IMG/VR virus record: IMGVR_UViG_2933660794_000001 | Coordinates: 24,816 to 88,815 of that record | Strand: one strand, 5' to 3' | From: a virus | Taxonomy: Duplodnaviria; Caudoviricetes | DNA: 64,000 nucleotides | Shown: one piece after another, positions 1-64,000 of the stretch | How the letters are laid out: the number at the start of each line of letters is the position of its first letter | Position numbering within the stretch: position 1 is the first letter of the stretch | Translations under genes and position numbers: made by a program | The notes under the pieces: generated by a model | The model's database searches: none | What the model was told of the DNA's origin: nothing | What the model saw: the letters and a program-made list of their open reading frames with translations, nothing else

Positions 1-508
1 TGTCGTCTGCGACTACCGGTGTGGGCCCGAGCGGGCCGACCGTGACGGAGGGCGTGGATGCGGTGCCGGACGTGTTCCGGGCCAGCAGACGGACGTACAC
101 GGGCGCATCGCAGGGGACGACGACGGTGGCGCCCTGCGCGGTCTCGATGGTGCCCTGCAGCGTGGCCGGGACCGGCGTGTAGGAGGCGAGGATGGAGGCG
201 TGGACCTCCACCCGCGCCCAGTCCAGCGGCAGCACGCTGCCGTCGGCGAACGTGCCGTCCCAGGAGACGGTGACGCCGCCGAGAACGGAGGCGACGATCG
301 GTGCGGACGGCTGCGGTGGGGGCGGCCCGTTCGTGATGTTCACGCCGGTCGTGCCGTCGGCTTGCTGCCCGATGACGCCGCGGAGGCTGCCCTGCCCGTC
401 GTACACCTGGATGGCGGTGTTCTCGATGGAGGCGTGGGTGAGCCGGGGGGAACGCTCGATCTTGCTGAGGCGTTTGTTGATCTGGTTGAGTTCGCGGCCG
501 ATGTCCAC
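1..508 (-). CDS. Minor tail / tail fibre-type protein, N-terminal part (runs off the window)
   Basis: Manually read open frame from GTG at 508 (MDIGRELNQINKRLSKIERSPRLTHASIENTAIQVYDGQG...VTVSWDGTF), directly after the stop of the upstream tail gene; not in the ORF track because it has no stop in the window. Confidence 0.7.
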   Translation of the reverse strand, partial: MDIGRELNQINKRLSKIERSPRLTHASIENTAIQVYDGQGSLRGVIGQQADGTTGVNITNGPPPPQPSAPIVASVLGGVTVSWDGTFADGSVLPLDWARVEVHASILASYTPVPATLQGTIETAQGATVVVPCDAPVYVRLLARNTSGTASTPSVTVGPLGPTPVVADD

Positions 509-509
509 C

Positions 510-1622
510 TCAGACGCCTCCGTACTGGAATGAGTCGGCCGGTTTCAGGCTGACCACGGTCTGGGGGCCGCCCTGGGCCTGGGGTTTACGGGTCCATCCG
601 GTGATGCGGCACCAGCCGGCGTAGGACGTCCAGGGGTTGTTGACGCGGGTGAACACGTCATCGCCGATCTGCCAGGAGCCGTACGGGGCGGCGGGGGTGT
701 CGCGGATGGTGATCTGGTCGACGCTGCCTCGGACGGTGGCCTGTCTCCAGGTTCGTTCGCGGGCGGCGCGGGCTTGGAGGATGTCGTTGCCGTTGACGTC
801 GGGGAGGTCCAGGACGTGCTCGAGGCGTAGGCGGCCGTTGCGGACGGCGGAGGTCTGCTTCAGCCGGGAGCGGCCTTCTCCGGAGCCTGCGGCGACGACG
901 ACCTGGGCGTAGTCGTCGCCGGACAGGGCGTCTTCGGGTTCGTCGATGATGTTGACGCCGCTGGAAAAGGTGATGTCGGTGCGTCGCCTGCCGAGGCGCG
1001 GCCAGCCCAGCTTGATCCGCTTCACGACCCCGGTCTTTGTGCTGTTCCAGGAGGTGGTGCAGGTGTAGTCGGGGGTGGCGTCACCGGAGACGAGGTCGTC
1101 GACCTGGTCTCCTAGGCAGGGCATCTCCCAAGGGTTGGAGTGGTAGACGTCCGCGGGTGTGCCGATGGTGGCCGTGCTGGTGGTGGGGTCGACGGTGACG
1201 CCGATGCTGCCGTCGGCCACCGACTGGGCGTAGGTCCAGATGTTGCGGATGACCTGGCATCGGTCGGCGTAGGTGTAGGGGCCGCGGCCGCCGTGCTCTC
1301 CGTCGAGGTCGAATCGCTTCTGCAGGTACGACGACCAGGACGCGGCCTCGATCGCGTAGTCGTTTCCTTGTGCGCGGACGTCCCAGACGATGCCGCCCCA
1401 CTGAAGCTGGTTGGCGGACTCGACGAAGATGAACGTGTTGCCAGGGTCCACGACGAGGGGGCTGGACGAGAGCAGCCGTGGGGACAGCCGACCGGACAGG
1501 CTGCCTGGCCCGTTGAGTTCGTCCCCGTACTCCAGGTCGACGAGCGGGAGTGCAGTGGACAGCCAGGCGCCGGTGAGAGCGTTCTGTGTGAGGACCCGGT
1601 CCGGGACGAGGGGGCCGGTCAT
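510..1622 (-). CDS. Minor tail protein (baseplate hub-like)
   Basis: 370 aa; WGGIVW and IKLGWPRLGRR motifs typical of actinophage minor tail proteins; downstream of the tape measure gene. Confidence 0.75.
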   Translation of the reverse strand: MTGPLVPDRVLTQNALTGAWLSTALPLVDLEYGDELNGPGSLSGRLSPRLLSSSPLVVDPGNTFIFVESANQLQWGGIVWDVRAQGNDYAIEAASWSSYLQKRFDLDGEHGGRGPYTYADRCQVIRNIWTYAQSVADGSIGVTVDPTTSTATIGTPADVYHSNPWEMPCLGDQVDDLVSGDATPDYTCTTSWNSTKTGVVKRIKLGWPRLGRRRTDITFSSGVNIIDEPEDALSGDDYAQVVVAAGSGEGRSRLKQTSAVRNGRLRLEHVLDLPDVNGNDILQARAARERTWRQATVRGSVDQITIRDTPAAPYGSWQIGDDVFTRVNNPWTSYAGWCRITGWTRKPQAQGGPQTVVSLKPADSFQYGGV

Positions 1623-2557
1623 CGCGGCGCCTCGAAGAACTCCACGTCGGCGATGAGGGTGCTGCTGCTGTCGACGCTGACGGTGCCCACGTTGCCGGAA
1701 TGACCCGCGAACTGGGCGCGCAGCAGCTGGGAGGTGCCGCGGTAGGAGGAGGGAATGGTCAGGGTGTCGGCGACGATGGCGTTGAGGCGGCGGGTGACGG
1801 CGCCCTGATTGTCGTCGATGATGACGGGCTGCATGCTGCGTTCGGTACCGAACATGGCGCGCACGGACCCGAAGATGTTGCCTGCGGTCAGGCGCAGGCC
1901 GGCGATGTCCAGGCGGATTTTGACGGTAGATGCCCAGGACGGCACGGTGATGGTCCAGCCGGCGGCGGTGGAGAAGTAGGCGTAGGAGTTGCTGCTGCCG
2001 CCGATCTGGGTGGAGATGCTGGCCGGGGACTGGGTGTAGAGGCTGCGGTCACGGCGGGGGTTCGCGATCTTCCGCAGATCGGTGATCATCTCGCTGGTGA
2101 TCGTCCCGGTCAGCGGTGGAATGTCGATCCGGGCGAGCGGGATACCTGTCCGGCCGTCGGGGATGGTGGTGGCCGCCGAGGAAACCCCGGAGATGACCTG
2201 GAAGTAGGCGATCTGATCCACCTCGGGGTCCAGAGTTCCGGTGTACTCGGGGTCCTCGATCCTGAGGATGAGCATGTCGGAGCGGCCGGTGCTGCCGGTC
2301 GCGGCGATGTCGACGTCGACAGCGCCGACGTTGCAGGCTGCGTAGTGGCCTTGGAAGGCGTCGTCGCGGCCCTGGATGACGGCCGAGCCGTCGCCGACCG
2401 TGACCCCGCCGCCGGGCACAGAACGCTGGCTGACCTGGAGGTCGTCGCCTTCGGTGATGCCCTCGGAGCCGCGGGCGAGGTCGCGGACCAGCATGCGGAA
2501 CTGCTGCGCCGAGTGGGTGGCCCCGTTGGTGAGGATGGGCGCGGGGAATAGAGACAT
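1619..2557 (-). CDS. Minor tail protein
   Basis: 312 aa; RSDMLILRIEDP...IPLARIDIP...ITDLR pattern of actinophage minor tail proteins; 4-bp overlap with the next gene. Confidence 0.75.
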   Translation of the reverse strand: MSLFPAPILTNGATHSAQQFRMLVRDLARGSEGITEGDDLQVSQRSVPGGGVTVGDGSAVIQGRDDAFQGHYAACNVGAVDVDIAATGSTGRSDMLILRIEDPEYTGTLDPEVDQIAYFQVISGVSSAATTIPDGRTGIPLARIDIPPLTGTITSEMITDLRKIANPRRDRSLYTQSPASISTQIGGSSNSYAYFSTAAGWTITVPSWASTVKIRLDIAGLRLTAGNIFGSVRAMFGTERSMQPVIIDDNQGAVTRRLNAIVADTLTIPSSYRGTSQLLRAQFAGHSGNVGTVSVDSSSTLIADVEFFEAPR

Positions 2558-2567
2558 GTGGCGCTCC

Positions 2568-3467
2568 TCAGAGGGCTATGTAGGCGTCGCGCCAGGTAAG
2601 GCGGAGGCGGGCGGTGTTGGTGGAGTCGAATGCGGTCCAGCGCATCTCGCTGGTGCCGGGCGGTAGGGAGAACAGGTCGATCCGGGAGGCCGGGGTCAGG
2701 TAGGCGGAGGCGTTGCCGCCGTTGTCCCAGGTGACGGTGCGGTATCCGGGGCGGGTGTCGATCTCGACCCAGCGGCCGGCCGCGAGGGTCAGGGTGGGCA
2801 GGGCGAGGGTGCGGCCGGTGGGGACGTGGATGATGCTGACGTTGGAGCACGGTCCGGTGATCCGGATGATGGGCCAGGCGTCCGCGTCACCCGTGTTGGT
2901 GACCCAGGCGGGACGGTCGGCGGCCACGGTGCCGTCCTGTACGTAGATCGGCGCGACGACGGGGGCCGCGAACCCACCCCCGGTGAGCCAGCCCAGGGGG
3001 ATCTCGGTGGTGGTGGCCTCGTCCGCGTAGAACTGCGGGTCGTGGGCGAAGAACTCGAGGTCCAGGGGGACGTAGCCGTGAATGACCTGCCGGTATTCGG
3101 GGTCGATCTTCCGGGCGCGGACGGTGAGTGATTTTGTTGGCCGGCCGGGCCGTTTGATCCGTATCGTCAGGCCTTGCCCGCCGACCAGACGCACCGCAGT
3201 GGCGTCGGTGGCGGCCTGTAGGGCAGCAACCATGTCGTGGCAGGCGGCGGGGTCACCGGGGGTTTTGATGGCGGCATCGAACTGGATCTGGCGGGCGGCC
3301 CAGTAGTCGGGTCCCGCGAACGAGCCGTCCATGGACGGCTGGTCAACGTCGTTGTCCCGGACCGGTGGCCGGCCGAGCCCGGTCACCTCGATGACGTTCA
3401 CCGCGGTGCCGGCGCCGATGATGACGCCCCCGATGTCGTACTGCCAATCGGCCAGTTCAAGCGGCAC
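2568..3467 (-). CDS. Distal tail protein (Dit-like)
   Basis: Start re-assigned to GTG 3467 overlapping the tape measure stop; FFAHDPQFY and VTNTGDADAWPIIRITGP motifs; first gene after tape measure. Confidence 0.8.
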   Translation of the reverse strand: MPLELADWQYDIGGVIIGAGTAVNVIEVTGLGRPPVRDNDVDQPSMDGSFAGPDYWAARQIQFDAAIKTPGDPAACHDMVAALQAATDATAVRLVGGQGLTIRIKRPGRPTKSLTVRARKIDPEYRQVIHGYVPLDLEFFAHDPQFYADEATTTEIPLGWLTGGGFAAPVVAPIYVQDGTVAADRPAWVTNTGDADAWPIIRITGPCSNVSIIHVPTGRTLALPTLTLAAGRWVEIDTRPGYRTVTWDNGGNASAYLTPASRIDLFSLPPGTSEMRWTAFDSTNTARLRLTWRDAYIAL

Positions 3468-6400
3468 GGGCGGCCACCCCTCCCCTGCGGGCGCGGCGGA
3501 CCGACCGGCCGACCTGTGCGCCGATGTCGGATGCGGTCGCGCCGGTACGGACCGCGGTGACGTTGACGTGGGTGTCGCCGCCCTCGCGTATGACGACGAC
3601 CGCACGGGACGCCGCGACGTCGGTGAGGCCGAGCCCGAAGCGGTGCGCGACATCCGCGAGCACGGGAAGGGCGGTGCGCCGCTTGCTGGGGCTGAGCGGC
3701 AGGTAGGCCTCGCCATGCGTCTCCGGCTCGGCGAAGCGGACGATGCCGCCGCTGGTGGCGTACATCCCGGCGCGGATACCACCGTCGGCGTACGACAGGT
3801 GCTGGTTGGCGCGGCCGAGGTCGGCGAGGAACTTCGTCGCCCGGGACCCCAGCGACTTGCTGATCTGGCTCTTGGCTTTGGTGGCCACGGTGATGATCTC
3901 GTCCTCACCGAGGCTGGTCTTGGCGGCCACGTCGTGGATGCCGGTCTTGCTGGAGGTGATCGCGGCGATGATCTGGACCAGGTCGGTCCTCTCGTCGTCG
4001 CTGAGGGTGGTCTTGGCCTTCTTCGCGGCGTCGTTGGCCTTCTTCGCGCTCGTCTTGTTCTTCACGGCGTCCGCGGCGAGCTTCTTCGCCGCGTCGTCGC
4101 CCTGCGCGGCCAGCTGCATGGCCAGGTCGCCGTAGCCCATCGACGCGAGTTTCGACAGGTTGTCCTGGAAGGTGGTGTCGGACTTGGTGGAGTCGGTGAG
4201 CTGCTTGGTGTAGTCCGCCAAAGTGGCCTTGGCGAGCGGGCCGAGCTTGCGCAGGTTGGTGATGATGTCGTTGAACTGCTTCTTCGACGCCTTCGCCAGC
4301 GCGGACACCACGGAGGCGCCCTCGGCACCCATGTCCCGCAGCTGCTCGATGACGTCACCGCCGGCACCACGAGTAGCGATCTTGTTCAGGTTCGACTCGT
4401 AGGAGGCGTTCGCTTTCACCGCCGAACCGAGGGTCTTGCCCCAGTCGGACAGAGAGAACTTCTTCTTGTAGCGGGCCTCAGCCGACGCTGCCGCATCCGT
4501 AGCGGTAGCCAGGCTCCGGCGCGCCTTCGCTACCGCGTTCTCCGCCGCGACCAGCTGAGCGTTCGTGTGGCGGCCCTTACGGACCTGATTCAGCCGGGCC
4601 TCCGCCGCCCGCAACGCATCAACGGCGTTCGCCCGCGCGCGGAGCTTCTTGTTGTAGTCGTCCCTGCTGATCGGCTGGTGAGCGTTCGAGTACGCCGACA
4701 TAACGTCCAACGTGGACTTCATTCCGCCGGACGGGGAGTACGTGAAGTTCGCGGCGCCGCCACCTGCGAGGTGCGGCAGGCCAGTGGGTCCGCCGGAGGC
4801 AAGCCGTGGCAGCACCAGCTGGCCCTGATTGAGGGCATCCATGGTCCGCACCCCGTACTTGCGGACCGCGGCCGCCTGAATGACGTACTCGGTGTTCGAC
4901 ACCCACGACTTGGCGCCCGATGCGAACGTGGCCAGGATGTCGTCGCTCCTCGGGCCACCCGGCCCCCGGATGAACCCTCCCTGGTCGAAGTGCTGCACCG
5001 GGTTCGTTGTCCCGCCGGCCGCCCGCCGCATGAGACCACCGTCCGCGGACAGCGGGACTTGCTTGTTCCCATAGCTTCCACCGACCCGGACAGTCTTGAT
5101 GTACGTCGTGGCCGTCTTGCCGTTCAGGGCGTTCAGGGCCGCCATGACCGCGCTGATGCCTCCGAGGGCGCCACCGTTGGCGGTGAAAACCTCGGTACGC
5201 CCGTCGGGCAGCTGTCGTGTTTTCAGCCCCACGGCCTCGAGGGCTGCGATTGCGGCAGCGTTGAGCGTACTGACGGTGATTTTGTGGGCGTTCGGTGTCT
5301 TCTCGATCGCCGCGCGGACTTCGCCCAGTCCACGGACCGCGTCCTGACGCTCGAGCTTTACCATCGTCTTGATCTGGTCAGGCGTGCCGAGCAGCGTGTT
5401 GACGTACTCCTGGGCCTTCTTCTTGTTGCCGCCGAATGCCTCGGTGGCCAGCCGCACCATCGTTGTCCGCAGCTGGTCGGACTTCTGTTGCATCGACGCC
5501 AGCGAGTCACCGGCGGCGATCCCGGAGGCGATCATCTCGTCGTTGGCCTTTGCCGCATCCGACATCGCCTGGCCGTTGGCCTGCCCGGCTCGTGTGTTCA
5601 GGTCAAGGGTGGCCCCGTTCTTCTTGAACGCCTCGGTCAAGTCGTCCAAAGAGGACTCGAAGCCGATCTGAGCGTCGTAGGCGCTGCGGTTTGCTTCGTT
5701 GAGGGCGAGGATGCTCTGCCTCAGCCCGTCGGCGGCCTGCTTCTGCGCGTTCAGTTTGGCCTGCGTGTCCGCGGCGGCGTCCCCGAAGATCCCCATGGAC
5801 CTGGCGGTCAGCTCGGCTTCGAGGGCGGAATCGGCCAGCGCGTTGTTGTAGTCCTTGAGGTACTTGGTGGGGATGTGGATGCCCTGCGCCTCGAGCATCG
5901 CCATCGCCTGCCGGGCCGTCTCGAGGCCCTTGGTCTTGGTGATCTCGTTGATGGCGTTGCCGAGGTCACGCATGTTGTTCGTGACGGCTTGGGAGGACGA
6001 TGCGGTGTCACTCCACGCGGAGCCGCCGGTCTTGAAGCCGTGAACGAACTTGTCCCAGCCGCTTGCGGTGTCGTCGGTCTCCTTGAGTAGGCCTTTCTGT
6101 GCCTTGCGGAGGTCGTCGATGGCTGAGGAGTCGATGTGGCCCTTGGTCAGGCCGGTTTCGATGGAGCGGGCGAGGTCGTCAACGCTTTCCTTGGCGTCCT
6201 TGCCGATGTCGGACAGCTTGCTGACGCCGTAGGCGAGGGCGGCGATACCGGCGATGACGATGCCCGCCTTCGCGGCCGTGCCAAGCGCGAGGAACGCGGC
6301 CCTCAGGCCGGCGAGACCTCCACCAGCCGCAGCGGAGGCTGTACCCAGGGCGAGGATCTGGGTACGGACGCGGGTCAGACCGCCAGCGAGGGCAGCCATG

Positions 6401-7755
6401 CCGGCTCCGGACAGCTGCAGCAGCTTCAGCGCGGCCGCGACGTGCAGGATGATGCCGACCAGTTGCGGCGGCATGGCGGCCACCAGGCGGGCCGCGGCGG
6501 TGACGAGGGTGAGCATGCTCGGGCCGGCCTGTGCCGCGCCCTGTACCAGGACGATGACGGCCTGCCCGAGGGCCTTGATGGCGTCGCGGGCGGCGGGCCC
6601 GTTGGCCTGCGCAAATTCGACGAACGCGCCAATGGCGCCGTGGTCGGCTCCTCCTTCGGACAGCACCCGCATGAGGTGGATGACCTCGTCGGTGAGGTGC
6701 TCCAGCTTGCCGTCGGTGAACGAGGCGATCTTGTCGGAGAGGGCATCGAAGCCGGGCGTCTGGATCGCCCCGCCCGCCACACTGACGAGGCGGTCCAGCT
6801 GAGTGGAGGCGGACTTCACCTCGGGCGTGAGGCGGGGGATCAGCTGGTCCAGGACCGTGATGCCCTTGGTGACCGGCTCCATCGTGAACCGGGCCATGTC
6901 GTCGGACCAGGCGGAGAAGTCACTCTTCAAGGTCGAGACGGCGATGGCGGCCTTCTGCGTAGCCGCTGGCATGGAGGCCAGCTGCTGTTGCATGGCGAGT
7001 TGTGCCTGCGCGGCTTCCTTCGAGGCTGCACCGTGCTGGCGGATGGCGTCCTGGTATTTCTGCTCAGCGTCGGCGAAGTCGGACAGGGGGCCGATCTGCC
7101 CGGCGACGGCGATCCCGAATGCCGCGCCCGCGATGCCGGCCGCGGTGAACTGGGCGGCGAGCGGGGCGAGCGTGGCGCTCAGACCAGCTGTCAGCGGGAT
7201 GGCGGCCGGTAGAAAGGTCAGCAAGCCCTTCAGACCGAAGTCGGTCTTGTTGCTGCCTGCCATGCCGCCGCCGCGGTTGTTGTTCAGGCCGCGCGTGACG
7301 GTACGCAGGTCGCTGGTGTCCGCTGTGACCCGGATGCGGATGGTCTGGTTTCGTTGGGCCCGGCGGACCGCGTCGGAGACCTGGTTGCGCAGGCTATTGG
7401 GGTCACGCAGTACCAGCGGGACCTCTATGCGGTGCCCCCAGGCTGCCCAGCGGATTGCGTTCTGCACGTCGCGCCGGAAGTCCATGGCATTCGCCAGGCG
7501 AAGGTCGACAGAGAGCGCGTCACCGTGTCCGGCGGTCGTGAGCGCGGCGCGAACATCACGTCGCAGGTCTTCGGCATCCAGTTCCAGGCGGATGGAGATG
7601 TTGTTGCTGGCTTCCGCCCGGAGCAGGGTGAGATTCCGGCGCAGGGCGTTGACCTCGTCGGATGCGTTCTGCGCGTCTGCTGCGGTGTCCCGCAGAGTGC
7701 GCGCCAGACCGGAGCCCTGCCCGGACAGGCGTACCGACAGATTCCACTGCGACAA
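3457..7755 (-). CDS. Tape measure protein
   Basis: 1432 aa, Ala/Gly-rich and helical with a hydrophobic middle; GGFIRGPGGPRSDDI and YADGG motifs; follows the chaperone pair. Confidence 0.92.
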   Translation of the reverse strand: MSQWNLSVRLSGQGSGLARTLRDTAADAQNASDEVNALRRNLTLLRAEASNNISIRLELDAEDLRRDVRAALTTAGHGDALSVDLRLANAMDFRRDVQNAIRWAAWGHRIEVPLVLRDPNSLRNQVSDAVRRAQRNQTIRIRVTADTSDLRTVTRGLNNNRGGGMAGSNKTDFGLKGLLTFLPAAIPLTAGLSATLAPLAAQFTAAGIAGAAFGIAVAGQIGPLSDFADAEQKYQDAIRQHGAASKEAAQAQLAMQQQLASMPAATQKAAIAVSTLKSDFSAWSDDMARFTMEPVTKGITVLDQLIPRLTPEVKSASTQLDRLVSVAGGAIQTPGFDALSDKIASFTDGKLEHLTDEVIHLMRVLSEGGADHGAIGAFVEFAQANGPAARDAIKALGQAVIVLVQGAAQAGPSMLTLVTAAARLVAAMPPQLVGIILHVAAALKLLQLSGAGMAALAGGLTRVRTQILALGTASAAAGGGLAGLRAAFLALGTAAKAGIVIAGIAALAYGVSKLSDIGKDAKESVDDLARSIETGLTKGHIDSSAIDDLRKAQKGLLKETDDTASGWDKFVHGFKTGGSAWSDTASSSQAVTNNMRDLGNAINEITKTKGLETARQAMAMLEAQGIHIPTKYLKDYNNALADSALEAELTARSMGIFGDAAADTQAKLNAQKQAADGLRQSILALNEANRSAYDAQIGFESSLDDLTEAFKKNGATLDLNTRAGQANGQAMSDAAKANDEMIASGIAAGDSLASMQQKSDQLRTTMVRLATEAFGGNKKKAQEYVNTLLGTPDQIKTMVKLERQDAVRGLGEVRAAIEKTPNAHKITVSTLNAAAIAALEAVGLKTRQLPDGRTEVFTANGGALGGISAVMAALNALNGKTATTYIKTVRVGGSYGNKQVPLSADGGLMRRAAGGTTNPVQHFDQGGFIRGPGGPRSDDILATFASGAKSWVSNTEYVIQAAAVRKYGVRTMDALNQGQLVLPRLASGGPTGLPHLAGGGAANFTYSPSGGMKSTLDVMSAYSNAHQPISRDDYNKKLRARANAVDALRAAEARLNQVRKGRHTNAQLVAAENAVAKARRSLATATDAAASAEARYKKKFSLSDWGKTLGSAVKANASYESNLNKIATRGAGGDVIEQLRDMGAEGASVVSALAKASKKQFNDIITNLRKLGPLAKATLADYTKQLTDSTKSDTTFQDNLSKLASMGYGDLAMQLAAQGDDAAKKLAADAVKNKTSAKKANDAAKKAKTTLSDDERTDLVQIIAAITSSKTGIHDVAAKTSLGEDEIITVATKAKSQISKSLGSRATKFLADLGRANQHLSYADGGIRAGMYATSGGIVRFAEPETHGEAYLPLSPSKRRTALPVLADVAHRFGLGLTDVAASRAVVVIREGGDTHVNVTAVRTGATASDIGAQVGRSVRRARRGGVAARAA

Positions 7756-7773
7756 GGCGGGCTCCTTCCTGAG

Positions 7774-8151
7774 CTAGGGGTGGTTCGTGGTCTGGATTTG
7801 CATGGCGGCGTGCAGGCTGGTGGGCAGCAGGAGGACTTTCACGCCGTGCCCTTCGTCGCCGTCGGGGACCGTCGCCTGCTTGTCGGCGAGGAGTTGGCAG
7901 CCGATGCAGCGGTGGGTGGTAGCGCGGTAGGCGTCCTCGTCACCACCAGCGGACTCGTCCCACTCTTCGGGGCGGGTGCCGCAGGTGGGGCAGCAGGCTT
8001 TGAGGTAGTCCTCGTAGGCGAGGGCCTTGCGGCGGTCCAGGTCGGACCAGGTGCCGTCTCCGTGGCCGCGGAAGTGGCTGTGCGGGATGCGGTACTCGCG
8101 GCACAGCTGCATTTCGGCTCGGAACACGGCATCGTCGATCAGCCTTTTCCC
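7774..8151 (-). CDS. Tail assembly chaperone, frameshifted C-terminal part (gpGT-like)
   Basis: -1 frame (RLIDDAVFRAEMQLCREYRIPHSHF...CPTCG...CIGC) entered at GGGAAAA near the end of the upstream chaperone gene. Confidence 0.8.
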   Translation of the reverse strand, partial: GKRLIDDAVFRAEMQLCREYRIPHSHFRGHGDGTWSDLDRRKALAYEDYLKACCPTCGTRPEEWDESAGGDEDAYRATTHRCIGCQLLADKQATVPDGDEGHGVKVLLLPTSLHAAMQIQTTNHP

Positions 8152-8681
8152 AAGTCGGTCCGGCGGGTGTGCTGGATCGTCCAGGCGGCTTGCCACAGGT
8201 CGCGGGCGTCGCCTGGGGCCCAGGTGTCGAGGTAGCGGCGGGCGGCTTCGACGGGCATGCCGTCCAAGGACGCGGCGGAGATCAGGGCGGGGGCGAAGGT
8301 GTCCATCGCCCACTCCTCGCCGCGTTCCTCGTCTTCCTCGCTGGCCGGGTGCTGCTTCTGCAGCGCCTCGAGGGCCTTGCGTTCGAGGGCGGTGAATCGG
8401 AGGGTGATGGTCTGCTCGTCGTATGCCTTCTGTGCGGCCGCGAGTTCCTTGCGGGCGTCGGCGGCTTCCTGCTTGAGCAGGGCCAGCGCCTCGGGGTTGG
8501 CGTCCTTGGGGGTCTGCTTGAGGTAGCGGTCGGCCTGCTCGTGGGCCTGCTTGGCCGTCAGGTAGCGTTCGCGGACCTCGGGGTCGCGGCACAGCTTGAG
8601 CGTGGTGACGGGCTTCTCGATCGTGTTGAGCTGCTTCTCCAGCTCGTCCCAGGTACTGCTGGTGGTCATGCGGGTCTCCAT
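8139..8681 (-). CDS. Tail assembly chaperone (gpG-like)
   Basis: 180 aa between major tail and tape measure genes, ending in DLGKG over a slippery heptamer. Confidence 0.85.
   Translation of the reverse strand: METRMTTSSTWDELEKQLNTIEKPVTTLKLCRDPEVRERYLTAKQAHEQADRYLKQTPKDANPEALALLKQEAADARKELAAAQKAYDEQTITLRFTALERKALEALQKQHPASEEDEERGEEWAMDTFAPALISAASLDGMPVEAARRYLDTWAPGDARDLWQAAWTIQHTRRTDLGKG
8145..8151 (-). other. Programmed -1 ribosomal frameshift site GGGAAAA
   Basis: Minus strand reads GAC TTG GGA AAA GGC TGA, an X XXY YYZ heptamer in the canonical G/GT position. Confidence 0.85.
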
Positions 8682-8771
8682 CGGGGAAGGCCCGGCCGGG
8701 CGCCGCGGCGCCCTTCCCGTGTTCGCCAGGGGCCCGGCCGGGGGCTCAGAGGGGGCGATTCCGGCTGGGCG

Positions 8772-9239
8772 TCAGGACGAGGGCACGGTCTGGTTGAACA
8801 CGGGCCGATCGGTGATCGTGAACTGAACGGTGATCTTCGCGGCCTCGTTGTCCGTGGTGTAGGCCTTGGAGTTCGACACGACGGTGACGGGGAAGACGTC
8901 CATGCCCTTCGTGGACGGCGCCTTGCCCTTGGAGAAGATCACGATGAACCCGGTGGTGCCCTTGGCGAGTTCCGTCTCGATGTCGTCGGTCGTGGAGTCC
9001 TCGTAGAACGTCAGCGAGCTGTCGGCTGCGGAGTCGTCGCCGCCGATCTTCGACACGAAGGTGCTGGCCATGTCGGGGGTCTCGATCGGCTGGTTTTCCA
9101 GCGACCATCCCTCGATGGCGGTGACCTGGTCGGTGTAGTCCGTGCCGGCGGTGATCTCAGCGGCGGTCGGAAGCAGCGACGCGGACGCGATCGTCGGCAG
9201 GAAGCAGATGCGGGTCGTGCCCTTGCGGTTGAACCTCAT
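8772..9239 (-). CDS. Major tail (tube) protein
   Basis: 155 aa; PTAAEITAGTD and TFVSKIGG motifs of actinophage tail tube proteins; synteny. Confidence 0.85.
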   Translation of the reverse strand: MRFNRKGTTRICFLPTIASASLLPTAAEITAGTDYTDQVTAIEGWSLENQPIETPDMASTFVSKIGGDDSAADSSLTFYEDSTTDDIETELAKGTTGFIVIFSKGKAPSTKGMDVFPVTVVSNSKAYTTDNEAAKITVQFTITDRPVFNQTVPSS

Positions 9240-9370
9240 GAGATGTGGCCCCTTGCGGTTAGGGGCCGAACTGTGGGGCCCCTGCTACACGTGTGGTGTG
9301 GCGGCCACCAGCCGGTGGTGGCGTCCGCGTGGGGTCCCGCCGCGGTGCGGTCTTACCTGTCCGCCTGCGT

Positions 9371-9838
9371 TTAGGCGGTCGCCTCGAGGTAGAGGCGGTA
9401 ACGGATCACTGCCGTCATGATTGCATCGGATTGCTCAGACGTTCCCCCCGCTTCCGTCGCCTCCCGGCACCAGCAGACGGCGCCGGGTCCGACGTTGAGC
9501 GGGTGGGCGTAGCCGGGGCTGCCGTCGGCGGGCCGTTCCACGACTTTCCAGCCGCGGTCCGCGAGCCACTGCGCCTGCTCGTCGCCGCCGCGACTGTCCG
9601 GTACGCCGGGTGCGGGACCGGAGACGAACGTGGCCTGGTAGTCGACGACCGCAGCGCGACCGTTGTCAGCGAGGGTTCCTGTGTTGTCGTTGCGGTCCAG
9701 CGGGTACAGCAGCGTGTACGGCGGCGGGACCGGGTGCCCGGCATCGTCCAGGGGGACGGTGCGCAGCCCGACCGGAAAGCCGGTGAGGGTCTCCAGGAGG
9801 GCTTGGAGGCCTTCGGTGACGGGGAGTCTTTCGATCAC
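9371..9838 (-). CDS. Tail terminator protein
   Basis: 155 aa with PPYTLLYP and YQATFV; immediately upstream of the major tail gene. Confidence 0.65.
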   Translation of the reverse strand: MIERLPVTEGLQALLETLTGFPVGLRTVPLDDAGHPVPPPYTLLYPLDRNDNTGTLADNGRAAVVDYQATFVSGPAPGVPDSRGGDEQAQWLADRGWKVVERPADGSPGYAHPLNVGPGAVCWCREATEAGGTSEQSDAIMTAVIRYRLYLEATA

Positions 9839-9839
9839 G

Positions 9840-10232
9840 TCAGCTCCCGAAGATCCGGTCCAGGGCGCTGGTGAACGCCTGCTCGTACTCGGGTGACAGT
9901 TCGTTCACTGCGGGGCCGACGTGCGGGAAGGGCGGCTGGAAGAAGTGCCGGCCGATGCTGTCGGTCATATCCCAGAACCCGTACTCCAGGCGGCGACCCT
10001 GCGGCTTGCGGGTGCCTACCTCCGCGCCACCGCCGTCCGGGACCGCGAACGGCTCACGCTTCCAGGAAGGCCGGTACTTGTCCGTGATGACGTTCGGTCC
10101 GGGTCTGCCGGATGCGTTCTCCATGATGAGCGCGCGCAGCAGCCGGGCCTGCTGCTGCACCGTGCGGTTCACTTCGGGGCCGACCCGGTCGGCGGCCTGC
10201 TCGAGGCGGGCGGCGAGGTCGTCGAGGTCCAT
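9840..10232 (-). CDS. HK97 gp10-like tail completion protein
   Basis: Start re-assigned to ATG 10232; GRRLEYGF and QPPFPHVGPA motifs. Confidence 0.7.
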   Translation of the reverse strand: MDLDDLAARLEQAADRVGPEVNRTVQQQARLLRALIMENASGRPGPNVITDKYRPSWKREPFAVPDGGGAEVGTRKPQGRRLEYGFWDMTDSIGRHFFQPPFPHVGPAVNELSPEYEQAFTSALDRIFGS

Positions 10233-11073: not shown

Positions 11074-11294
11074 TCTTCCGTGGCCTCCTCTTCTGCCCGC
11101 GACGCCTGCCAGGAGCTGACGTGGCCGATGGCGATGGCGTACCAGGACATGAGGACGACGTAGGCGATGGAGTTACGCCACCACAGGAGCGTGGGCGGGA
11201 GCAGCGCAACCCAGGCGAAGAACAGCACCATGTGCAGGCGCTTCCAGAAGAGGGCGGAGCCCACGGACGTCTCCCTTCGTACGTGCGACATCAC
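11070..11294 (-). CDS. Small two-TM membrane protein
   Basis: 74 aa with two hydrophobic Trp-rich segments; start/stop overlaps on both sides. Confidence 0.6.
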   Translation of the reverse strand: MMSHVRRETSVGSALFWKRLHMVLFFAWVALLPPTLLWWRNSIAYVVLMSWYAIAIGHVSSWQASRAEEEATEE

Positions 11295-12456: not shown

Positions 12457-12494
12457 GGCTACCTCCAGGTGGTGTGGGGTGGGAAGGGGTGCGG

Positions 12495-12541: not shown

Positions 12542-12546
12542 GCCGC

Positions 12547-12834: not shown

Positions 12835-12836
12835 GG

Positions 12837-40570: not shown

Positions 40571-40571
40571 G

Positions 40572-57820: not shown

Positions 57821-58927
57821 CTAACTGGCCGTAGACGGCATCCCGAGGAGAGAGCGGACGATCGACTCGAGCCGACTGGGATCCATCTCCAGGGCCTTCG
57901 CGTTGAGGAGCCGCACCAGTTCGAAGAAGTCGTCGGTGGTCGTCTTCTGCACGAGGTACATCGCAGCCGACCCCGGACTGTCGTACGGGAAGGGCGATGG
58001 CTTCGACAGACGGCTGGCGCGCATCGCTTCACTGGTGGTCTGTTGCCGCGGTTCGGGGATGGACTCCGCCGGATCCTCTCGTGCGGGCGCACCCTTCAAC
58101 TCCACCGTGGACACCGGGCGGGCCGGCTGTTCAGCTGCCTCCGGGATTATCACGCCGTGATAATCCGCTGGGCCGGCCGACACCTCCACGATCGGCCGGG
58201 CCTTCGCCTGAGCCTTCTTGCGGGCGACCTCCGCTCGCTCGTCCGCTTTCGCCTTCTGCTCCTCAGGCGACAGCTTCCCGAGGTTGCGGACGTGCTCGAC
58301 ACGCCGCTCACCGGTCATGAGGTCCTTCTGCAACTCCGGGGTGAGCTTCAGCAGGGACAGCTTGCTGGCGAGCGTGGACTGGGCGATACCGAGGCGCTTG
58401 GACGCCTTGGTCTGCGAGCCGTAGTACTCCACGAGCTGCTGCAAGGCGTGGGCTTCCTCCAGGTCGGTCATGTCATCGCGGTGGTAGTTCGCGATGAACG
58501 CGGCCTCGAGGAGGGTCTCGTCGGTGGCGACGCGGGCGTTGTCGACACGGACGGGGATGACTGCCAGGCCGACGCGGCGGGAGGCCTCGAGACGGCGGTG
58601 GCCGTCGACCACGACGTACTGGGCGCCGTCGTCGAGGTCGTTGGCGCGGTCGGGTCGATCACGGAGGTAGGCGTCGACGGTGGCCACCACGATCGGCAGG
58701 ATGATGCCGACCTCACGGACGGTCTCTACGGTCTCATCGAGGTTACGCAGGTGGTTACGCGGGTTGTCTGGGTTGTCGCTGATGAGGGTGACTGGCAGTT
58801 CGGTGACCGTGGAGAGGTCCGTGCTGTCGCCGCTCATGGCGTTTTTGAAGGCGTCTCGCCGGGAGCTGCGCACTGTACCGGCCTTGCTGAACGCAGCGCT
58901 TCGGCTCAGCTGATCGGCTTTGCTCAC
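57821..58927 (-). CDS. parB: ParB-family partition protein
   Basis: 368 aa; NPDNPR, GIILPIVV, VVDGHRR, HTH (SQTKASKRLGIAQSTLASKLSLL). Confidence 0.93.
   Translation of the reverse strand: MSKADQLSRSAAFSKAGTVRSSRRDAFKNAMSGDSTDLSTVTELPVTLISDNPDNPRNHLRNLDETVETVREVGIILPIVVATVDAYLRDRPDRANDLDDGAQYVVVDGHRRLEASRRVGLAVIPVRVDNARVATDETLLEAAFIANYHRDDMTDLEEAHALQQLVEYYGSQTKASKRLGIAQSTLASKLSLLKLTPELQKDLMTGERRVEHVRNLGKLSPEEQKAKADERAEVARKKAQAKARPIVEVSAGPADYHGVIIPEAAEQPARPVSTVELKGAPAREDPAESIPEPRQQTTSEAMRASRLSKPSPFPYDSPGSAAMYLVQKTTTDDFFELVRLLNAKALEMDPSRLESIVRSLLGMPSTAS
58144..58166. promoter_or_regulatory. parS-like palindrome inside parB
   Basis: GGATTATCACG-C-CGTGATAATCC. Confidence 0.75.
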
Positions 58928-60204
58928 TGGCTGACCCCCAGAGCGATCAGACGCATGATGTTCGCCTGAGCGCTGCTCGGCGCGTAGGACAACAGCGGCT
59001 GCTGCAAGCGAACCGCCTCCCGCTGTTCCTTGAGGTCTCCGATGACGGCGAGGACACGCTGCTCTTCCATGCCCTGCCAGCTCTCCAGGGAGGACGTTGC
59101 GACGTACCCGCGGCGGGCGTCGTACTGATTCACCACGAGACCGAGATAGTCGATCTCGAGGCCGAGGTCCTTGCAGAGTTCCTCGATCTGTTCAGCCAGG
59201 ATGTTGAACGCGATGGCGGAGGAGTCTTCGGCGAGGACGGGGACGACGACGCCGGACTGGCCGGGCTTTTCGTTGCGGCGGCGCCGGCCGTAGTAGAGGG
59301 CAGCGTCCATGGCGAGGCCGAGGCTTGGCGGGCAGTCGATGATGATGATGTCGTAGTCGTCCTCGAGCGGCTTAAGGGCACGTTCGAGAGCGTGCTCCTT
59401 CTGGAAGCCGCGGGTATTGGCTGCGGCCAGGGTGATTTCCATGTCCAGGAGGAAGCCGTCGAAGCATGCCGGTAGGACATGTAGGCGCCCGGCGTAGCGC
59501 GGATCGTCTACCGCGACCACATGGTCGCGGATATCACGTTCGCCCTTTCCGACCATGTGTGTGACGAGGCTGTCCGCACCGCGGGGGATCCATTCGATGC
59601 CTAGCTGGCTGGTGAGGTGGCCCTGCGGGTCGTAGTCGACGACCAGTACTCGTTGGCTTCCTACGCACGCGGCGCTGACCTGCTCGAGAAGTTCGGTTCG
59701 GGTCTTCCCGATGCGCTGCAGATCGTTGTAGGCGAGCGTTTCGATGTACCGGCGGAGCGCTGCGGCGCCGGTTTCCTGGTCTTCGGCAAACGACTCTGAG
59801 ATGCCGAGGGACACCGATGTCTTGCCGACGCCGCCCTTCTGGTTGCAGGAGATGATGCGCCTCGGTTCCCGGGAGGGCGCGGAGTTCGGGGAGGGGTGGT
59901 CATCCAGCCAGTTCCGAATCGACTGGGCCAGGCCCTGGATGATGGAGACGCCGCGGTCGTTGCAGGTGTCCCGGAAGTCGTTGAAGAGGCCGGGCGGAAG
60001 CCAGGTGGAGAAGGACCTGGCGCCGGCGGTGTCGATTTCCTTGTTGGGGCGGTCGCTGGTGCGCCAGTTGGTGACGGCTGCCTCGACGGCGTCCTGGATG
60101 TCCAGGCCCAGTTCGGCGGCGCGGACCTTGAGTGCTTGTTGGAGGGCCGAGGGCAGCTTGGACGCCACCTTTTCCCGGTCTCCGTCGGGGTATGGAGAGG
60201 CCAT
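58924..60204 (-). CDS. parA: ParA-family ATPase with N-terminal RHH-like repeats
   Basis: 426 aa; deviant Walker A NQKGGVGKT, VDYDPQGH, IIIDCPPSLG; GTGA overlap with parB. Confidence 0.93.
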   Translation of the reverse strand: MASPYPDGDREKVASKLPSALQQALKVRAAELGLDIQDAVEAAVTNWRTSDRPNKEIDTAGARSFSTWLPPGLFNDFRDTCNDRGVSIIQGLAQSIRNWLDDHPSPNSAPSREPRRIISCNQKGGVGKTSVSLGISESFAEDQETGAAALRRYIETLAYNDLQRIGKTRTELLEQVSAACVGSQRVLVVDYDPQGHLTSQLGIEWIPRGADSLVTHMVGKGERDIRDHVVAVDDPRYAGRLHVLPACFDGFLLDMEITLAAANTRGFQKEHALERALKPLEDDYDIIIIDCPPSLGLAMDAALYYGRRRRNEKPGQSGVVVPVLAEDSSAIAFNILAEQIEELCKDLGLEIDYLGLVVNQYDARRGYVATSSLESWQGMEEQRVLAVIGDLKEQREAVRLQQPLLSYAPSSAQANIMRLIALGVSQ

Positions 60205-60285: not shown

Positions 60286-60306
60286 GATTATCACGCCGTG
60301 ATATTC
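60286..60306. promoter_or_regulatory. parS-like palindrome upstream of parA
   Basis: GATTATCACG-C-CGTGATATTC (one mismatch). Confidence 0.75.
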
Positions 60307-60339: not shown

Positions 60340-60366
60340 CGTGATTATCACGCCGTGATAATCACG
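60340..60366. promoter_or_regulatory. parS-like palindrome upstream of parA
   Basis: CGTGATTATCACG-C-CGTGATAATCACG (13-bp arms). Confidence 0.8.
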
Positions 60367-61421: not shown

Positions 61422-62195
61422 TCAGGCGACGTCGAACGCGCGGCGGGGTTCGGTGAGGCCGGCCTGCTCCTGCCGCTTACGGGCGAGTGCGGCTCGGCGG
61501 ACGGCGTCGCTGCGGTCGACCTCGCGCGGGGTGATCTGGTCCAGGTCGGCCGCCGGCTCGGGGATTCGGTTCGCGCGGGCGGCGGCTTCCTGCCGGGCCA
61601 TGGCTTCGAGGGTGTAGGGGTCGGTGGGCTGGTGGGGTCGCCGGTGAGTGAGGGCCGCCTGGAGGGTGGCCCGGTATCCGGGTGAGGCGGTCTCGCGGGT
61701 CTTCACTGGTCCCTGCGGCTCCGACGTCTGGGGTGTGGCTGGTTCCGACGTGGATGCGGTGACGTTGCCGACGGGCAGGACACGGATGCTGCGGACTGTG
61801 GAGCGGCCGAGCTTGTCGTTGATCTGCTTGGCGAGCTGGCCGCCGAGGAGTCGGAGTTGGGCGGCGTAGGCGTGGGTGCCGGGCCGGAGATCGAGGCGGC
61901 CGGTCTGTTCGTCGTAGCCGGTGGGTTCGACGCGGCCGACGAGGTGCGGGCACAGCTCGGGCCACTGGTCGAGGAGGGTGCCACCGGCGACGCCGGCCTC
62001 AAGGGGAAGGTCTGCGCCGAGTCCGGTGATGGCGGCAGCCAGGCTGATGGGGTCGCGTCCGTCACCGCGGCGGGTGCTCGGCTTGCGGCGGGGCTTGGCC
62101 GGGGTGTTGGTGGGTGCTGTGCGGGCGGTGGCTTTGTAGGCGGCGAGGGCCTGCCGGGCGAGGTCCTTCCCGGACAGCTGCGGGGTCTTAGTCAC
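61422..62195 (-). CDS. dciA: DciA (DUF721)-family helicase operator
   Basis: GTG 62195; SGKDLARQALAA, DGRDP, GGTLLDQWPEL, AYAAQLRLL...INDKLG...VRSIRV pattern of actinobacterial DUF721. Confidence 0.78.
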   Translation of the reverse strand: MTKTPQLSGKDLARQALAAYKATARTAPTNTPAKPRRKPSTRRGDGRDPISLAAAITGLGADLPLEAGVAGGTLLDQWPELCPHLVGRVEPTGYDEQTGRLDLRPGTHAYAAQLRLLGGQLAKQINDKLGRSTVRSIRVLPVGNVTASTSEPATPQTSEPQGPVKTRETASPGYRATLQAALTHRRPHQPTDPYTLEAMARQEAAARANRIPEPAADLDQITPREVDRSDAVRRAALARKRQEQAGLTEPRRAFDVA

Positions 62196-62524
62196 GGTTG
62201 GTCTCCCTGCACTCGGTCGTCTCGGTGGTAGCCGTCGTGGCCGTGGGGCCGGGTGCAGACCTGGATGTCGCCGCCCCATCCAGGGGCGTGGGCGACTCGG
62301 CAGGCGTGACCGGGTACGTCTGCGACGGCGGCTTCGATGCGGGCGCAGGGCGTGCAGACGTCCTCCACGTCGCCGTCGACGGGGTTGAGCTGGTCGCGGG
62401 TGCAGTACGTGAAGCACAGGCAGCACATGACCCGGCCGTCGGTGAGCCTGTCCAGGCGGGTGTAGCTGCCGCCGGCGGCGAGGGGCACAGTGAGGAAGTC
62501 GGCGGGTTGGGAGGTGTCGGGCAC
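62192..62524 (-). CDS. Small Cys/His-rich protein
   Basis: 110 aa; CCLC...CTPC; CTRPHGHDGYH; AGGAG RBS. Confidence 0.6.
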   Translation of the reverse strand: MPDTSQPADFLTVPLAAGGSYTRLDRLTDGRVMCCLCFTYCTRDQLNPVDGDVEDVCTPCARIEAAVADVPGHACRVAHAPGWGGDIQVCTRPHGHDGYHRDDRVQGDQP

Positions 62525-62535
62525 GGCGGGTCTCC

Positions 62536-64000
62536 TCAGAAGGCGGGGGTGAGGGTGCGCTGGGCGTTGAGGGCCTGGTCGACGAGCCAGTTGGTGTACA
62601 GGCGGCGTGCGTCCCGTTCGCTCATGCCGGTCGCGAGCGCGTTGTAGATGATCGTGAAGTCCTGGGCGGCCTCGGCACGGCTGGCCAGGACTAGTGCGCG
62701 GTCCAGGTCCTCGAGGTCGACCGGCTCGGGCGCGGTCTCTACGGGGATTTCAAAGCAGTCGGCGTCGTCCACGGGGCCGGCGGCGATCTCCCGGGTGCGG
62801 CGGAACGCTTCGCGGACGAGGGATTGCACGCTGACCCGGGTGGGGGTGCGGTCGGCGCCGAGGCCGCTGTAGGCGGCGTCATCGTGGCGGGCCTGCTCGG
62901 CGGCACGGGACTCCTGCCACGCCTCCACCAGGACCTTGCGACGCTCGGGGGTGGTGTACAGCAGGTGGCAGGACGCGAGCCGGTAGGCCAGCAGCCCGGA
63001 CGGGCGGCGGGCGTCATCCGCGCCGACGGGCAACTGCTCGGCGACGGCCTGGACCTCGAGGGCAGTCCATCCGGCATCAGCAACGTGGCGGACGATCCAC
63101 GCGAGCCGGGGGATGGAGGCGCGGTTGAGCCAGGGCACCATCTGCTTCAGCTCACGGGCCAGCTGGTAGCGGCGACCAACCTGGTTGAGCTTCCGCGGTC
63201 CGCGGTTGGATGACTTCGGGGTGGGGGACTTGCCTTCCCCGCTTGCGAGCTTGCTCTCAGAGGGAGAGTGAGTACCAGCAGTAGAAGAAGTGCCGGAAGT
63301 ACCACCCTGCATTGGGGTGCAACGCCCTCGTCCCGAAACACCGGTGCGGCGGCGGGGGCGGCGGGTCTTCCGGGCGGCCTTCTTCGCCAGCTTCCCCAGC
63401 AGGGTCCGGGACTCCTCGGCGGCGCCGACGGGACGCCGTTGCACCCCTTCTCCGATCGTGCGGATACCGAGGGCCTCGTCGAAGGCGACGGGGATGACAC
63501 GCTCGAACACGGAAGCTTGGTTGCCGCCACCGCGGACACGGGTGCCCTTGCTGCGGTACACCAGCAGCCCGGCCTCGCGGAGCATGCCGAGGTGGTACTG
63601 GACGGTGCGCTCGGCAACTTTCAGCTTCCGGGCGAGGTAGTCGACGCTGGGCCGGCACTCCGTGAGGGCGGCGATCTCCTGGGCGATGGCGATGGTGGTG
63701 GGTCCCCATTTGGGGCCGTGGGCGCGGCTGGGGGTGTACAGGCCCTTCTTGGCGCAGTCGGTGACCCAGTGGACGGCGGTCATCCAGGAGTGGGCGCAGG
63801 TGGTGATGCGGCCGGTCGTGGCGTGCAGCCATTGGGCGGCTGCGATCACCCGGAGCCGTACGCCACGACCGTCGTGGCCTGCACTGTAATCGGTCGTGTG
63901 TTCGGTTTTGGTGGTGGGGGTGGGTGTGTCGAGGGTCTGCTGGGGGCACTGGGTGTCGCCCGTGCGGGGGGAGATTCCTCGCGAAACGGGCGCGACGGAA
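62536..64000 (-). CDS. repA: Plasmid-type replication initiator Rep (wHTH); 5' end may lie beyond the window
   Basis: RPSVDYLARKLKVAERTVQYHLGMLREAGLL wHTH; LAWIVRHVADAGW...RPSGLLAYRL; the frame stays open from 63849 to the window end; upstream of the dciA-like gene and parAB. Confidence 0.7.
   Translation of the reverse strand, partial: SVAPVSRGISPRTGDTQCPQQTLDTPTPTTKTEHTTDYSAGHDGRGVRLRVIAAAQWLHATTGRITTCAHSWMTAVHWVTDCAKKGLYTPSRAHGPKWGPTTIAIAQEIAALTECRPSVDYLARKLKVAERTVQYHLGMLREAGLLVYRSKGTRVRGGGNQASVFERVIPVAFDEALGIRTIGEGVQRRPVGAAEESRTLLGKLAKKAARKTRRPRRRTGVSGRGRCTPMQGGTSGTSSTAGTHSPSESKLASGEGKSPTPKSSNRGPRKLNQVGRRYQLARELKQMVPWLNRASIPRLAWIVRHVADAGWTALEVQAVAEQLPVGADDARRPSGLLAYRLASCHLLYTTPERRKVLVEAWQESRAAEQARHDDAAYSGLGADRTPTRVSVQSLVREAFRRTREIAAGPVDDADCFEIPVETAPEPVDLEDLDRALVLASRAEAAQDFTIIYNALATGMSERDARRLYTNWLVDQALNAQRTLTPAF

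Follow-up and report, generated by a model that had tools for sequence, protein, structure and literature searches.

The 64-kb stretch of DNA analyzed here (the window) corresponds to G000:C27:24816-88815, the last 64 kb of the 88,815-bp contig C27 from a 9.2-Mb assembly of 46 contigs, and carries virion genes, a TraB-type DNA transfer module and partition genes on one element. Positions given without a contig name are those of the window. A total of 115 genes were called on C27 from third-position G+C with a minimum length of 50 codons, and the genes were named from Pfam, PHROGs and NCBIfam. Forty-seven of the 115 proteins were found to match the Streptomyces plasmid pZL12 (GQ919031, phage ZL12) in the same order (tblastn, 1e-5). 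These matches span the tail, head and terminase genes, the genes 69, 70c, 71c and 72c, the ParB/DciA/helix-turn-helix (HTH) block and the recombinase.

The first and last 95 bases of C27 are identical in direct orientation. Because of this exact terminal overlap C27 is most simply read as a circle of 88,720 bp, the closure being drawn from the assembly itself. No terminal inverted repeat was found on C27, and its ends have no match elsewhere in the assembly. When the whole contig was compared to the rest of the assembly by blastn, neither a second copy nor an att-like duplicate was found. Just 12 short similarities were returned, the best of them (1.3 kb, 76%) to the chromosomal dnaB. The G+C content of C27 is 68.3%, compared to about 72% in the large contigs. 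The contig word depth of the element is 190 and that of four other contigs touching the stretch 106-205, values that say nothing on copy number. By size and form C27 falls within the class of circular extrachromosomal replicons of about 85-94 kb that includes pZL12. This answers the check that the first-pass annotation had suggested, whether the contig is circular or extrachromosomal and free of att sites. That the window might instead be chromosomal, with an att-flanked prophage and a separate actinomycete integrative and conjugative element (AICE), was considered and rejected, since C27 closes on itself and has no chromosomal copy. The host region G000:C1:573353-584142 contains short patches resembling window 46.7-48.6 kb and 52.4-52.8 kb (up to 94% over 364 bp), which suggests a related phage remnant or a cassette in common with the chromosome.

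Virion genes and the adjoining transfer module

From position 19355 to the left edge of the window, and on to C27:17448, the minus strand forms one uninterrupted siphovirus operon. It begins with a TerS-like protein (18843-19355; phrog_645, 2e-17), whose TerS role is suggested by its position, and a T4-type TerL (17252-18895; Terminase_6N 8e-13, Terminase_6C 6e-6; 61% identical to pZL12). These are followed by the portal (15228-17099; phrog_64, 4.3e-18; 67% identical to pZL12.66c), a scaffolding protein (14422-15162; phrog_2303, 1.4e-23), a head decoration protein (13900-14310; phrog_3583, 5e-39) and an E-type major capsid protein (12837-13883; PF03864 Phage_cap_E, 6.3e-33; 57% identical to pZL12.63c). 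Eight small head-tail connector or neck genes (9371-12834) include matches to phrog_5 (tail completion/Neck1, 1.2e-10), phrog_13779 and phrog_37388 and are collinear with pZL12.55c-62c. The major tail protein (8772-9239; phrog_2491, 1.4e-39) is separated from the 1432-aa tape measure (3457-7755; PHROG tape measure families, best 1.1e-11) by two small genes (7774-8681; phrog_19248, 4.8e-40, function unknown) homologous to pZL12.52c and 53c, which by their position are the probable tail assembly chaperones. Three minor tail proteins (510-1622, 1619-2557 and the Dit-like 2568-3467; phrog_1885 5.7e-62, phrog_25212 1e-82, phrog_5577 2.6e-34, Dit phrog_33 3e-20) are 61-75% identical to pZL12.48c-50c. 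The window opens within a tail fibre or tip gene (1-508, the first 169 of 834 codons), which continues to C27:22819 (best PHROG tail fibre match 5.7e-30; 51% identical, pZL12.47c region). C27:17448-25323, which reaches across the left edge of the window, encodes a collagen-like fibre and a LysM lysin besides the tail fibre.

Altogether, 21 consecutive structural genes match pZL12.47c-68c in order with 36-75% identity. The domain and PHROG matches from the TerS-like gene to the tail genes (1-19355, minus strand) confirmed the intact head-tail operon that had been described from the window. Outside the window, C27 (L003:15476-17447 and L003:1810-2694) also carries genes for a dCTP deaminase and for ThyX thymidylate synthase, as well as another WhiB-like gene, the second on the replicon; nucleotide-metabolism genes of the former two sorts are typical of lytic replication.

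An intact operon does not have to be a working one, and C27 could be a conjugative, partitioned plasmid with only two lifestyles and a cryptic phage module, from which particles are not made or are not infectious. NEAU-sy36, the closest relative in PLSDB by capsid, matches the TraB-like protein of C27 in three pieces, so that either members of this family can hold broken modules or its sequence contains errors. In C27 the structural genes, from TerS through to the tail fibre, were each found to be an uninterrupted open reading frame (ORF), with a length near that of the pZL12 counterpart and with strong codon usage. In addition, 33 plasmids sharing the capsid are 84.8-94.1 kb in size, a narrow range such as a limit on capsid volume would give. 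We regard a cryptic phage module as rather unlikely.

The transfer module is located 1.6 kb from the head-tail operon. The gap contains a small protein, secreted or lipoprotein-like, that is encoded on the other strand (19421-19963, plus strand; one N-terminal hydrophobic segment; 39% identical to pZL12.69) and a membrane protein with two transmembrane segments (20189-20740, minus strand; two hydrophobic segments; 38% identical to pZL12.70c), both without a Pfam match. If the contig were a chimaera, this junction, at 19.4-20.2 kb, is where a prophage from the chromosome would have been misjoined to an unconnected AICE or plasmid. Nothing was found in favour of such a misassembly, which the first-pass annotation had allowed for, although the host does carry separate integrase and FtsK pairs on C3, C4 and C8. 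The gene order across the junction is the same in pZL12 and in complete plasmids, and composition is even across it. A 22.4-kb Logan contig spanning 12001-25190 also crosses the junction; it derives from the sole sequencing run containing the sequence, which is probably the source of the assembly, and is not independent of its reads. The probability of a chimaera is negligible.

The transfer module, on the minus strand, consists of a TraB-like FtsK/SpoIIIE-type ATPase (20941-23109; 722 aa from an upstream ATG), a 783-aa protein of unknown function with a low-complexity N-terminus (23128-25479; homologue of pZL12.72c, 62-67% identical), a Spd-like DUF2637 membrane protein (25820-27400; PF10935 7.2e-37; phrog_29003 3.6e-150) and a run of small genes that completes it. 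The DUF2637 protein has three hydrophobic segments and a long charged and Ala/Ser-rich tail, and belongs to a family that presumably includes plasmid spreading proteins. Of the TraB/TraA/Spd-like module that had been proposed to lie beside the head-tail genes, the FtsK-like TraB and the DUF2637 protein were retained. The TraA label was not, as the 23128-25479 protein had no match in Pfam, PHROGs or NCBIfam and gave just hypothetical, unnamed clusters in the ESM Atlas.

The TraB-like protein matches phrog_31069 (1.2e-38) and is 83% identical to pZL12.71c. Its Walker A motif is GAQGSGKT, and over three quarters of its length it is 30-32% identical to plasmid proteins named 'DNA translocase FtsK' by PGAP. 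An exhaustive search returned 451 clusters of relatives. Searched against the PDB, the protein alone gave no match, and FtsK was reached by profile only: a profile of 63 relatives matched FtsK (2iuu) at 4.7e-12 and also ESX EssC/EccC and a conjugative coupling protein. Residues D386-E387 are invariant in this profile, and eight of its 63 members reach PF01580 (FtsK_SpoIIIE) at E 0.001. An FtsK/HerA-type P-loop ATPase domain is accordingly present. Because the FtsK profile and PHROG matches are accompanied by scores below the Pfam and NCBIfam TraB thresholds, the 722-aa protein is best classed as a distant lineage of TraB/FtsK translocases and not as a canonical TraB. Its N-terminal hydrophobic stretches stay below a simple hydrophobicity threshold, and profile positions 600-670 gave weak, non-significant matches to winged-helix chains of the Fur/ArgR type (E 0.06-0.16).

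The conserved spacer below traB was considered as a repeat array and rejected; it consists of a 42-codon ORF and a hairpin. The ORF (20829-20957, minus strand), starting at an ATG that overlaps the final codons of traB, is conserved in all eight pZL12-type cassettes, annotated as a coding sequence in two records and variable at third positions across the eight aligned cassettes. It is absent from our gene call because of the 50-codon minimum. The hairpin CCCCCGGGT-cgt-ACCCGGGGG (20786-20806, minus strand), followed by UUUCUGU, is unique in the window and identical in seven of the eight cassettes, the eighth (G052) being altered at three positions. The RNA fold has an energy of -29.1 kcal/mol (z -3.98), and the hairpin is the probable terminator of the tra operon. 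A promoter and terminator scan of 18.5-33.5 kb gave nothing above chance, and a search of the window against Rfam gave no match.

Partition, replication and recombination genes

The partition genes are located near the right end of the window on the minus strand. ParB (57821-58873) matches ParB_N (8.6e-12), HTH_ParB (9.4e-12) and, above the cut-off, TIGR00180 (2.5e-23). The adjacent gene encodes a ParA-family ATPase of 414 aa (58924-60168; AAA_31 3e-24, CbiA 3e-11). The palindrome GATTATCACG-C-CGTGATAATC is present in three copies of 21-23 bp, a parS-like one inside parB (58144-58166) and two, parS-like or operators, upstream of parA (60286-60306 and 60343-60363). Half-sites of the palindrome match seven times in the window, compared to 0.21 expected by chance. 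A Walker-type ParA, a two-domain ParB and repeated, predicted centromere sites make this a type I ParABS system, in agreement with the parABS of the first-pass annotation.

Further right on the same strand are a protein of the DciA helicase loader family (61422-62195; PF05258, 5.7e-7) and a 437-aa winged-helix protein (62536-63849), which is our candidate replication initiator. The latter is conserved across the family plasmids and matches pZL12.20c at E 1.5e-18; it has a weak PHROG match to O-like replication initiation (4e-5). The order of the block is that of pZL12, with 32% identity for ParB, 46% for DciA (18c) and 28% for 20c. The replicative helicase DnaB (33093-34472, plus strand; DnaB_C 6e-102, DnaB 3e-32) lies elsewhere in the window and is followed by early-type genes. 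No match was found for 34554-36353 in Pfam, PHROGs or NCBIfam, and the ESM Atlas gave just unnamed clusters. Upstream of dnaB, a 1-kb gene-free gap contains a sequence of about 50 bp repeated directly three times (32324-32514), each copy with internal palindromes and the palindromic core CTTCCGGCAATGCCGGA. The 17-mer core matches four times, compared to none expected, and a small zinc-finger-like gene and dnaB lie just downstream. The repeats may represent an origin or an operator.

Transcription diverges near 29.3-29.9 kb, at a regulator of the NsdA family with an XRE-type HTH and TPR repeats (29949-31154, plus strand; HTH_31 1.2e-10; NF053720 2.5e-27, above cut-off). The usual repressors of Streptomyces tra genes are of the GntR family. 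pZL12 (pZL12.80) and pSLE1 carry such a GntR regulator where C27 has its XRE-HTH/TPR protein, and the Streptomyces sp. NBC_01005 plasmid has a 472-aa HTH regulator. Further genes of the window, all on the minus strand, encode an N6/N4 DNA methyltransferase (47144-48172; PF01555, 3e-54), a single-stranded DNA-binding protein (SSB, 49513-49923), an HTH protein, a WhiB-like protein (50619-51278) and a RusA resolvase (51275-51790).

No tyrosine or serine recombinase was found within the window. The absence of an integrase noted by the first-pass annotation therefore holds for the window, but not for the circle, which carries one tyrosine recombinase at C27:9903-11069, about 14 kb to the left. Its pZL12 counterpart is the 'integrase/recombinase' pZL12.36c (28% identity), and other family plasmids have homologues as well. 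If this enzyme were a true integrase, C27 could be an integrative prophage or an integrative and conjugative element caught in its excised circular form. Homologues in relatives are annotated 'site-specific integrase', a few close TraB homologues are found on very long contigs (11.35 Mb and 719 kb), and a passage of PMC4487206 speculates on integration of pSLE1. The assembly, however, contains no chromosomal copy or att-like duplicate, and a scan of the window found no tRNA genes or fragments. The best NCBIfam matches of the recombinase are Xer-type, though far under the cut-offs. The circle also encodes ParAB, DnaB, DciA and an initiator candidate of its own, and the database entries of dozens of relatives are complete circular plasmids. 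Neither the att sites nor the integrase-mediated chromosomal integration of an AICE or integrated prophage were thus found, and we consider an excised integrative element highly improbable. Since partition and replication genes are present and an integrated copy is not, the recombinase more likely serves multimer resolution than integration. Separate from C27, the host carries integrase and FtsK-domain genes a few kb apart at C4:97196-103514, C3:225742-230306, C3:246413-251997 and C8:355197-359552, which look like the classical AICE layout.

Proposed workings of the plasmid-prophage

Taken together, the gene content and the closed contig indicate that C27 is very probably a plasmid-prophage of the pZL12 family, about 88.7 kb in size, which exists as an extrachromosomal circle in a Streptomyces-like host. 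Virion, packaging and lysis genes are found with replication and partition genes on one non-integrated replicon, as in a phage-plasmid. The central proposal of the first-pass annotation, that one replicon combines a virion, TraB-type transfer and partition, is supported by the closure of C27, the lack of a chromosomal copy and the conserved junction.

During maintenance, the winged-helix initiator candidate would replicate the circle together with the element's own DciA, DnaB and SSB, and ParA and ParB would segregate it by acting on the three palindromic sites. The tyrosine recombinase outside the window would most likely resolve multimers, as Cre does for phage P1. In the viral route, the T4-type terminase, the portal, the scaffold and the E-type capsid, together with a long tail of the non-contractile kind, would form a siphovirus particle that packages the plasmid, and the LysM lysin would release the particles. 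In the non-lytic route, the membrane-associated FtsK-like TraB may move double-stranded plasmid DNA between hyphae, a role suggested by its 83% identity to the pZL12 tra gene, while the partner gene, the DUF2637 protein and the small membrane proteins may aid transfer or spreading in the recipient mycelium. The choice of mode is presumably set at the divergent region at 29.3-32.5 kb, which contains the XRE-HTH/TPR regulator and the repeats.

Several observations weigh against this scheme. The virion, transfer and plasmid-state activities are all deduced from homology, and the functions of pZL12 are known here from the title of its report and from passages of citing papers. The TraB-like protein by itself does not match Pfam FtsK_SpoIIIE (PF01580), and its score with the NCBIfam TraB equivalog NF041214 (plasmid_TraB) is 19.4 bits, compared to a cut-off of 800. 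C27 lacks a homologue of 73c, which is third in the tra region of pZL12, and the DUF2637 protein occupies its place. The clt locus of other Streptomyces plasmids is an array of short repeats; a scan for 8-mers occurring at least four times in 400 bp found no clt-like array near traB, and what it did return were the repeats at 32.3 kb and low-complexity coding sequence within the DUF2637 gene. The initiator candidate matches no curated Rep family in Pfam or NCBIfam, with HTH_20 and HTH_36 matches under the curated cut-offs, and the plasmid-type Rep that had been listed among the genes of the element could not be kept under that name. No iterons were found upstream of the candidate in a search extended across the circle junction, and the sole iteron-like repeats are those by dnaB, 30 kb away.

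The translocase slot in the family and comparison with known systems

A megablast search with the head-tail region identified 32 PLSDB plasmids, all from Streptomyces and all typed as non-mobilizable. A tblastn search of PLSDB with the capsid gave 49 records, of which 34 are Streptomyces or Kitasatospora plasmids with at least 47% identity. Apart from one plasmid of 152 kb these have the sizes given above, and the MOB-suite class of most of them is non-mobilizable. In at least 30 of the 34, a TraB/FtsK-like gene was found no more than about 10 kb from the terminase. Elements of this kind had been called a rare class, a description that these counts do not support for Streptomyces.

The ATPase in this position is of different types. 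Three of the 34 plasmids carry the pZL12 type (at least 78% identity) and at least 19 the pSLE1 type (18 among the 60 of 139 records listed and one found separately). The latter is annotated as 'type IV secretory system conjugative DNA transfer family protein' or 'DNA translocase FtsK'. Six plasmids carry distant relatives (24-25% identity) of either type, and pCQ3 and pCQ4 a protein that PGAP names 'plasmid transfer protein TraB'. The 152-kb NA02950 plasmid is not counted among the 30; its only match is weak (25%) and falls in a gene annotated as FtsK, about 21 kb away from the capsid gene. No ATPase match was found in the 6.5-7.5 kb examined of CP109240, CP042280 and CP108485, where a 713-aa ORF of CP109240 lies partly inside the stretch. 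In CP109524, CP108377 and one further locus of the family, genes for a 'protein kilB' and for Pycsar effector or DUF5706 proteins were observed between ATPase and terminase. The slot between transfer and packaging genes seems to collect small cargo, such as defence genes and homing endonucleases (GIY-YIG, HNH, LAGLIDADG).

The transfer cassette was also found apart from the C27 virion genes. Six PLSDB plasmids carry the pZL12-type TraB, three of them without a C27-type capsid, and in the NBC_01005 plasmid the same overall layout is found with an unrelated HK97-type head module containing an HNH endonuclease. The cassette therefore occurs with two unrelated head modules. Among 400 genomes of other Streptomyces species, one has a pZL12-type TraB (79% identical; G052:C12:70000-89999, on a 234-kb contig). 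Since the cassette of this genome is homologous to 20189-27400 and the genome has no capsid match at 1e-40, the pZL12-type cassette also travels without the C27 virion module. In the same 400 genomes, TraB relatives at 25-35% identity were found in 66 and the capsid family in 40, in both cases with several located mid-chromosome. Portal, scaffold, decoration and capsid homologues, up to 73% identical, were observed mid-chromosome in two other species, at G202:C1 3.63-3.71 Mb and G041:C1 4.18-4.26 Mb. They are separated by about 37 kb from tail-gene homologues, with nothing from C27 matching in between, which is an odd split. No TraB or Par homologue was found within about 40 kb of these head genes, a result that is silent on the origin of the family.

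From this census we tentatively propose, as a possibility somewhat short of even, that the whole family of 85-94 kb Streptomyces and Kitasatospora plasmid-prophages spreads by two routes. Its members would have a fixed translocase slot by the packaging genes, filled by at least three very distant ATPase lineages, and their cassettes and virion modules would recombine independently. The TraB cassette could also be a viral adaptation that after infection mainly spreads the prophage-plasmid through the mycelium of its own host, and not between strains. Its fixed place beside the packaging genes and its DUF2637 protein fit such a role. So does the conservation of the pZL12-type TraB, which in a collection of 5.8 billion proteins forms 115 clusters, all at least 72% identical, compared to 47-97% for the capsid across the family. 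(The longest contig is 85-99 kb in 26 of these clusters, and five clusters are found on much longer contigs.) Passages of citing papers attribute to pZL12 a conjugal transfer that depends on its tra locus (PMC3583192). The two roles are compatible, and spread confined to the host mycelium is improbable as the main function.

The idea of three lifestyles is already in print for the pZL12 family (PMC3583192, PMC4170104). According to the passages available, pZL12 and pFP4 already combine plasmid, phage and conjugative element in one Streptomyces replicon, and a single further element adds little to this. The value of C27 is that it shows the pZL12 family to be common and modular, and the strain offers a further experimental handle, with a switch-region regulator that differs from that of pZL12. 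The family-wide picture of a translocase slot was not found in print, which is weak evidence of absence, the primary papers on pZL12 and pFP4 and their supplements being outside the search. If the two-route proposal is true, the family would be the largest set of phage-plasmids also able to conjugate, and one invisible to current surveys.

Of the known systems, pZL12 (GQ919031, 90,435 bp, circular) is the closest in organization, and the first-pass annotation rightly named it as the Streptomyces precedent. According to citing papers it replicates, is transferred by conjugation and has a cycle as plasmid and lytic phage (PMC3583192, PMC4170104). The two elements are of the same size class and circular form. 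They share a collinear tail-head-terminase operon, the small genes 69 and 70c between terminase and tra, a tyrosine recombinase and genes of the SSB/RusA region. At the DNA level, however, almost no similarity was found, with 2% of the first 20 kb matching. The ParA proteins belong to different types (414 aa in C27 compared to 219 aa, with no real match), C27 has its own DnaB to which pZL12.82 is unrelated, and it has no type III polyketide synthase. The 2010 abstract on pZL12 by Zhong et al. reportedly mentions a repA locus, traA-traC and P1-like near-random ends.

Besides pSLE1 (S. leeuwenhoekii) and pSAM1 (S. ambofaciens), some 17 further plasmids of 85-94 kb also share the head-tail module, their capsids being 47-78% identical. 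This group resembles C27 in size, in the ParAB/DciA/HTH genes and in having a large FtsK-like ATPase adjoining the terminase. pSLE1, which was annotated from pZL12 (PMC4487206), differs in that its 774-aa ATPase has no BLASTP similarity to that of C27 (E 1.4), and in keeping the GntR regulator. The plasmids pCQ3 and pCQ4 (Streptomyces sp. W9 and W75) have capsids 49% and 90% identical, the same size class and an ATPase adjoining the terminase. Their TraB is, however, canonical and 25% identical to that of C27 over 139 residues around the P-loop (E 8e-5).

The TraB of small conjugative Streptomyces plasmids and AICEs (pSVH1/pIJ101 type; mechanism as cited in PMC3583192) is, like that of C27, a P-loop ATPase related to FtsK, about 700 aa long and hydrophobic in its N-terminal region. 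As in C27, it is encoded with membrane proteins of the 'spread' type and without a relaxase or type IV secretion system, but on a small plasmid or integrated element and not on a phage-plasmid. With the phage-plasmids P1, N15 and SSU5, C27 has in common an extrachromosomal prophage state, its own replication and partition genes, a site-specific recombinase and a narrow size range as a capsid limit would give (PMC12282955). The same review treats conjugation and viral transfer as alternatives, and the passages searched name no phage-plasmid doing both; pZL12 does not occur in its text. A lytic and a non-lytic route on one genome would make the pZL12 family a natural test of the trade-off between the two. 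Unlike P1, N15 and SSU5, C27 carries a TraB-type transfer module, of a kind invisible to mobility typing based on relaxases and type IV secretion systems, and it is this typing that pZL12-family elements escape.

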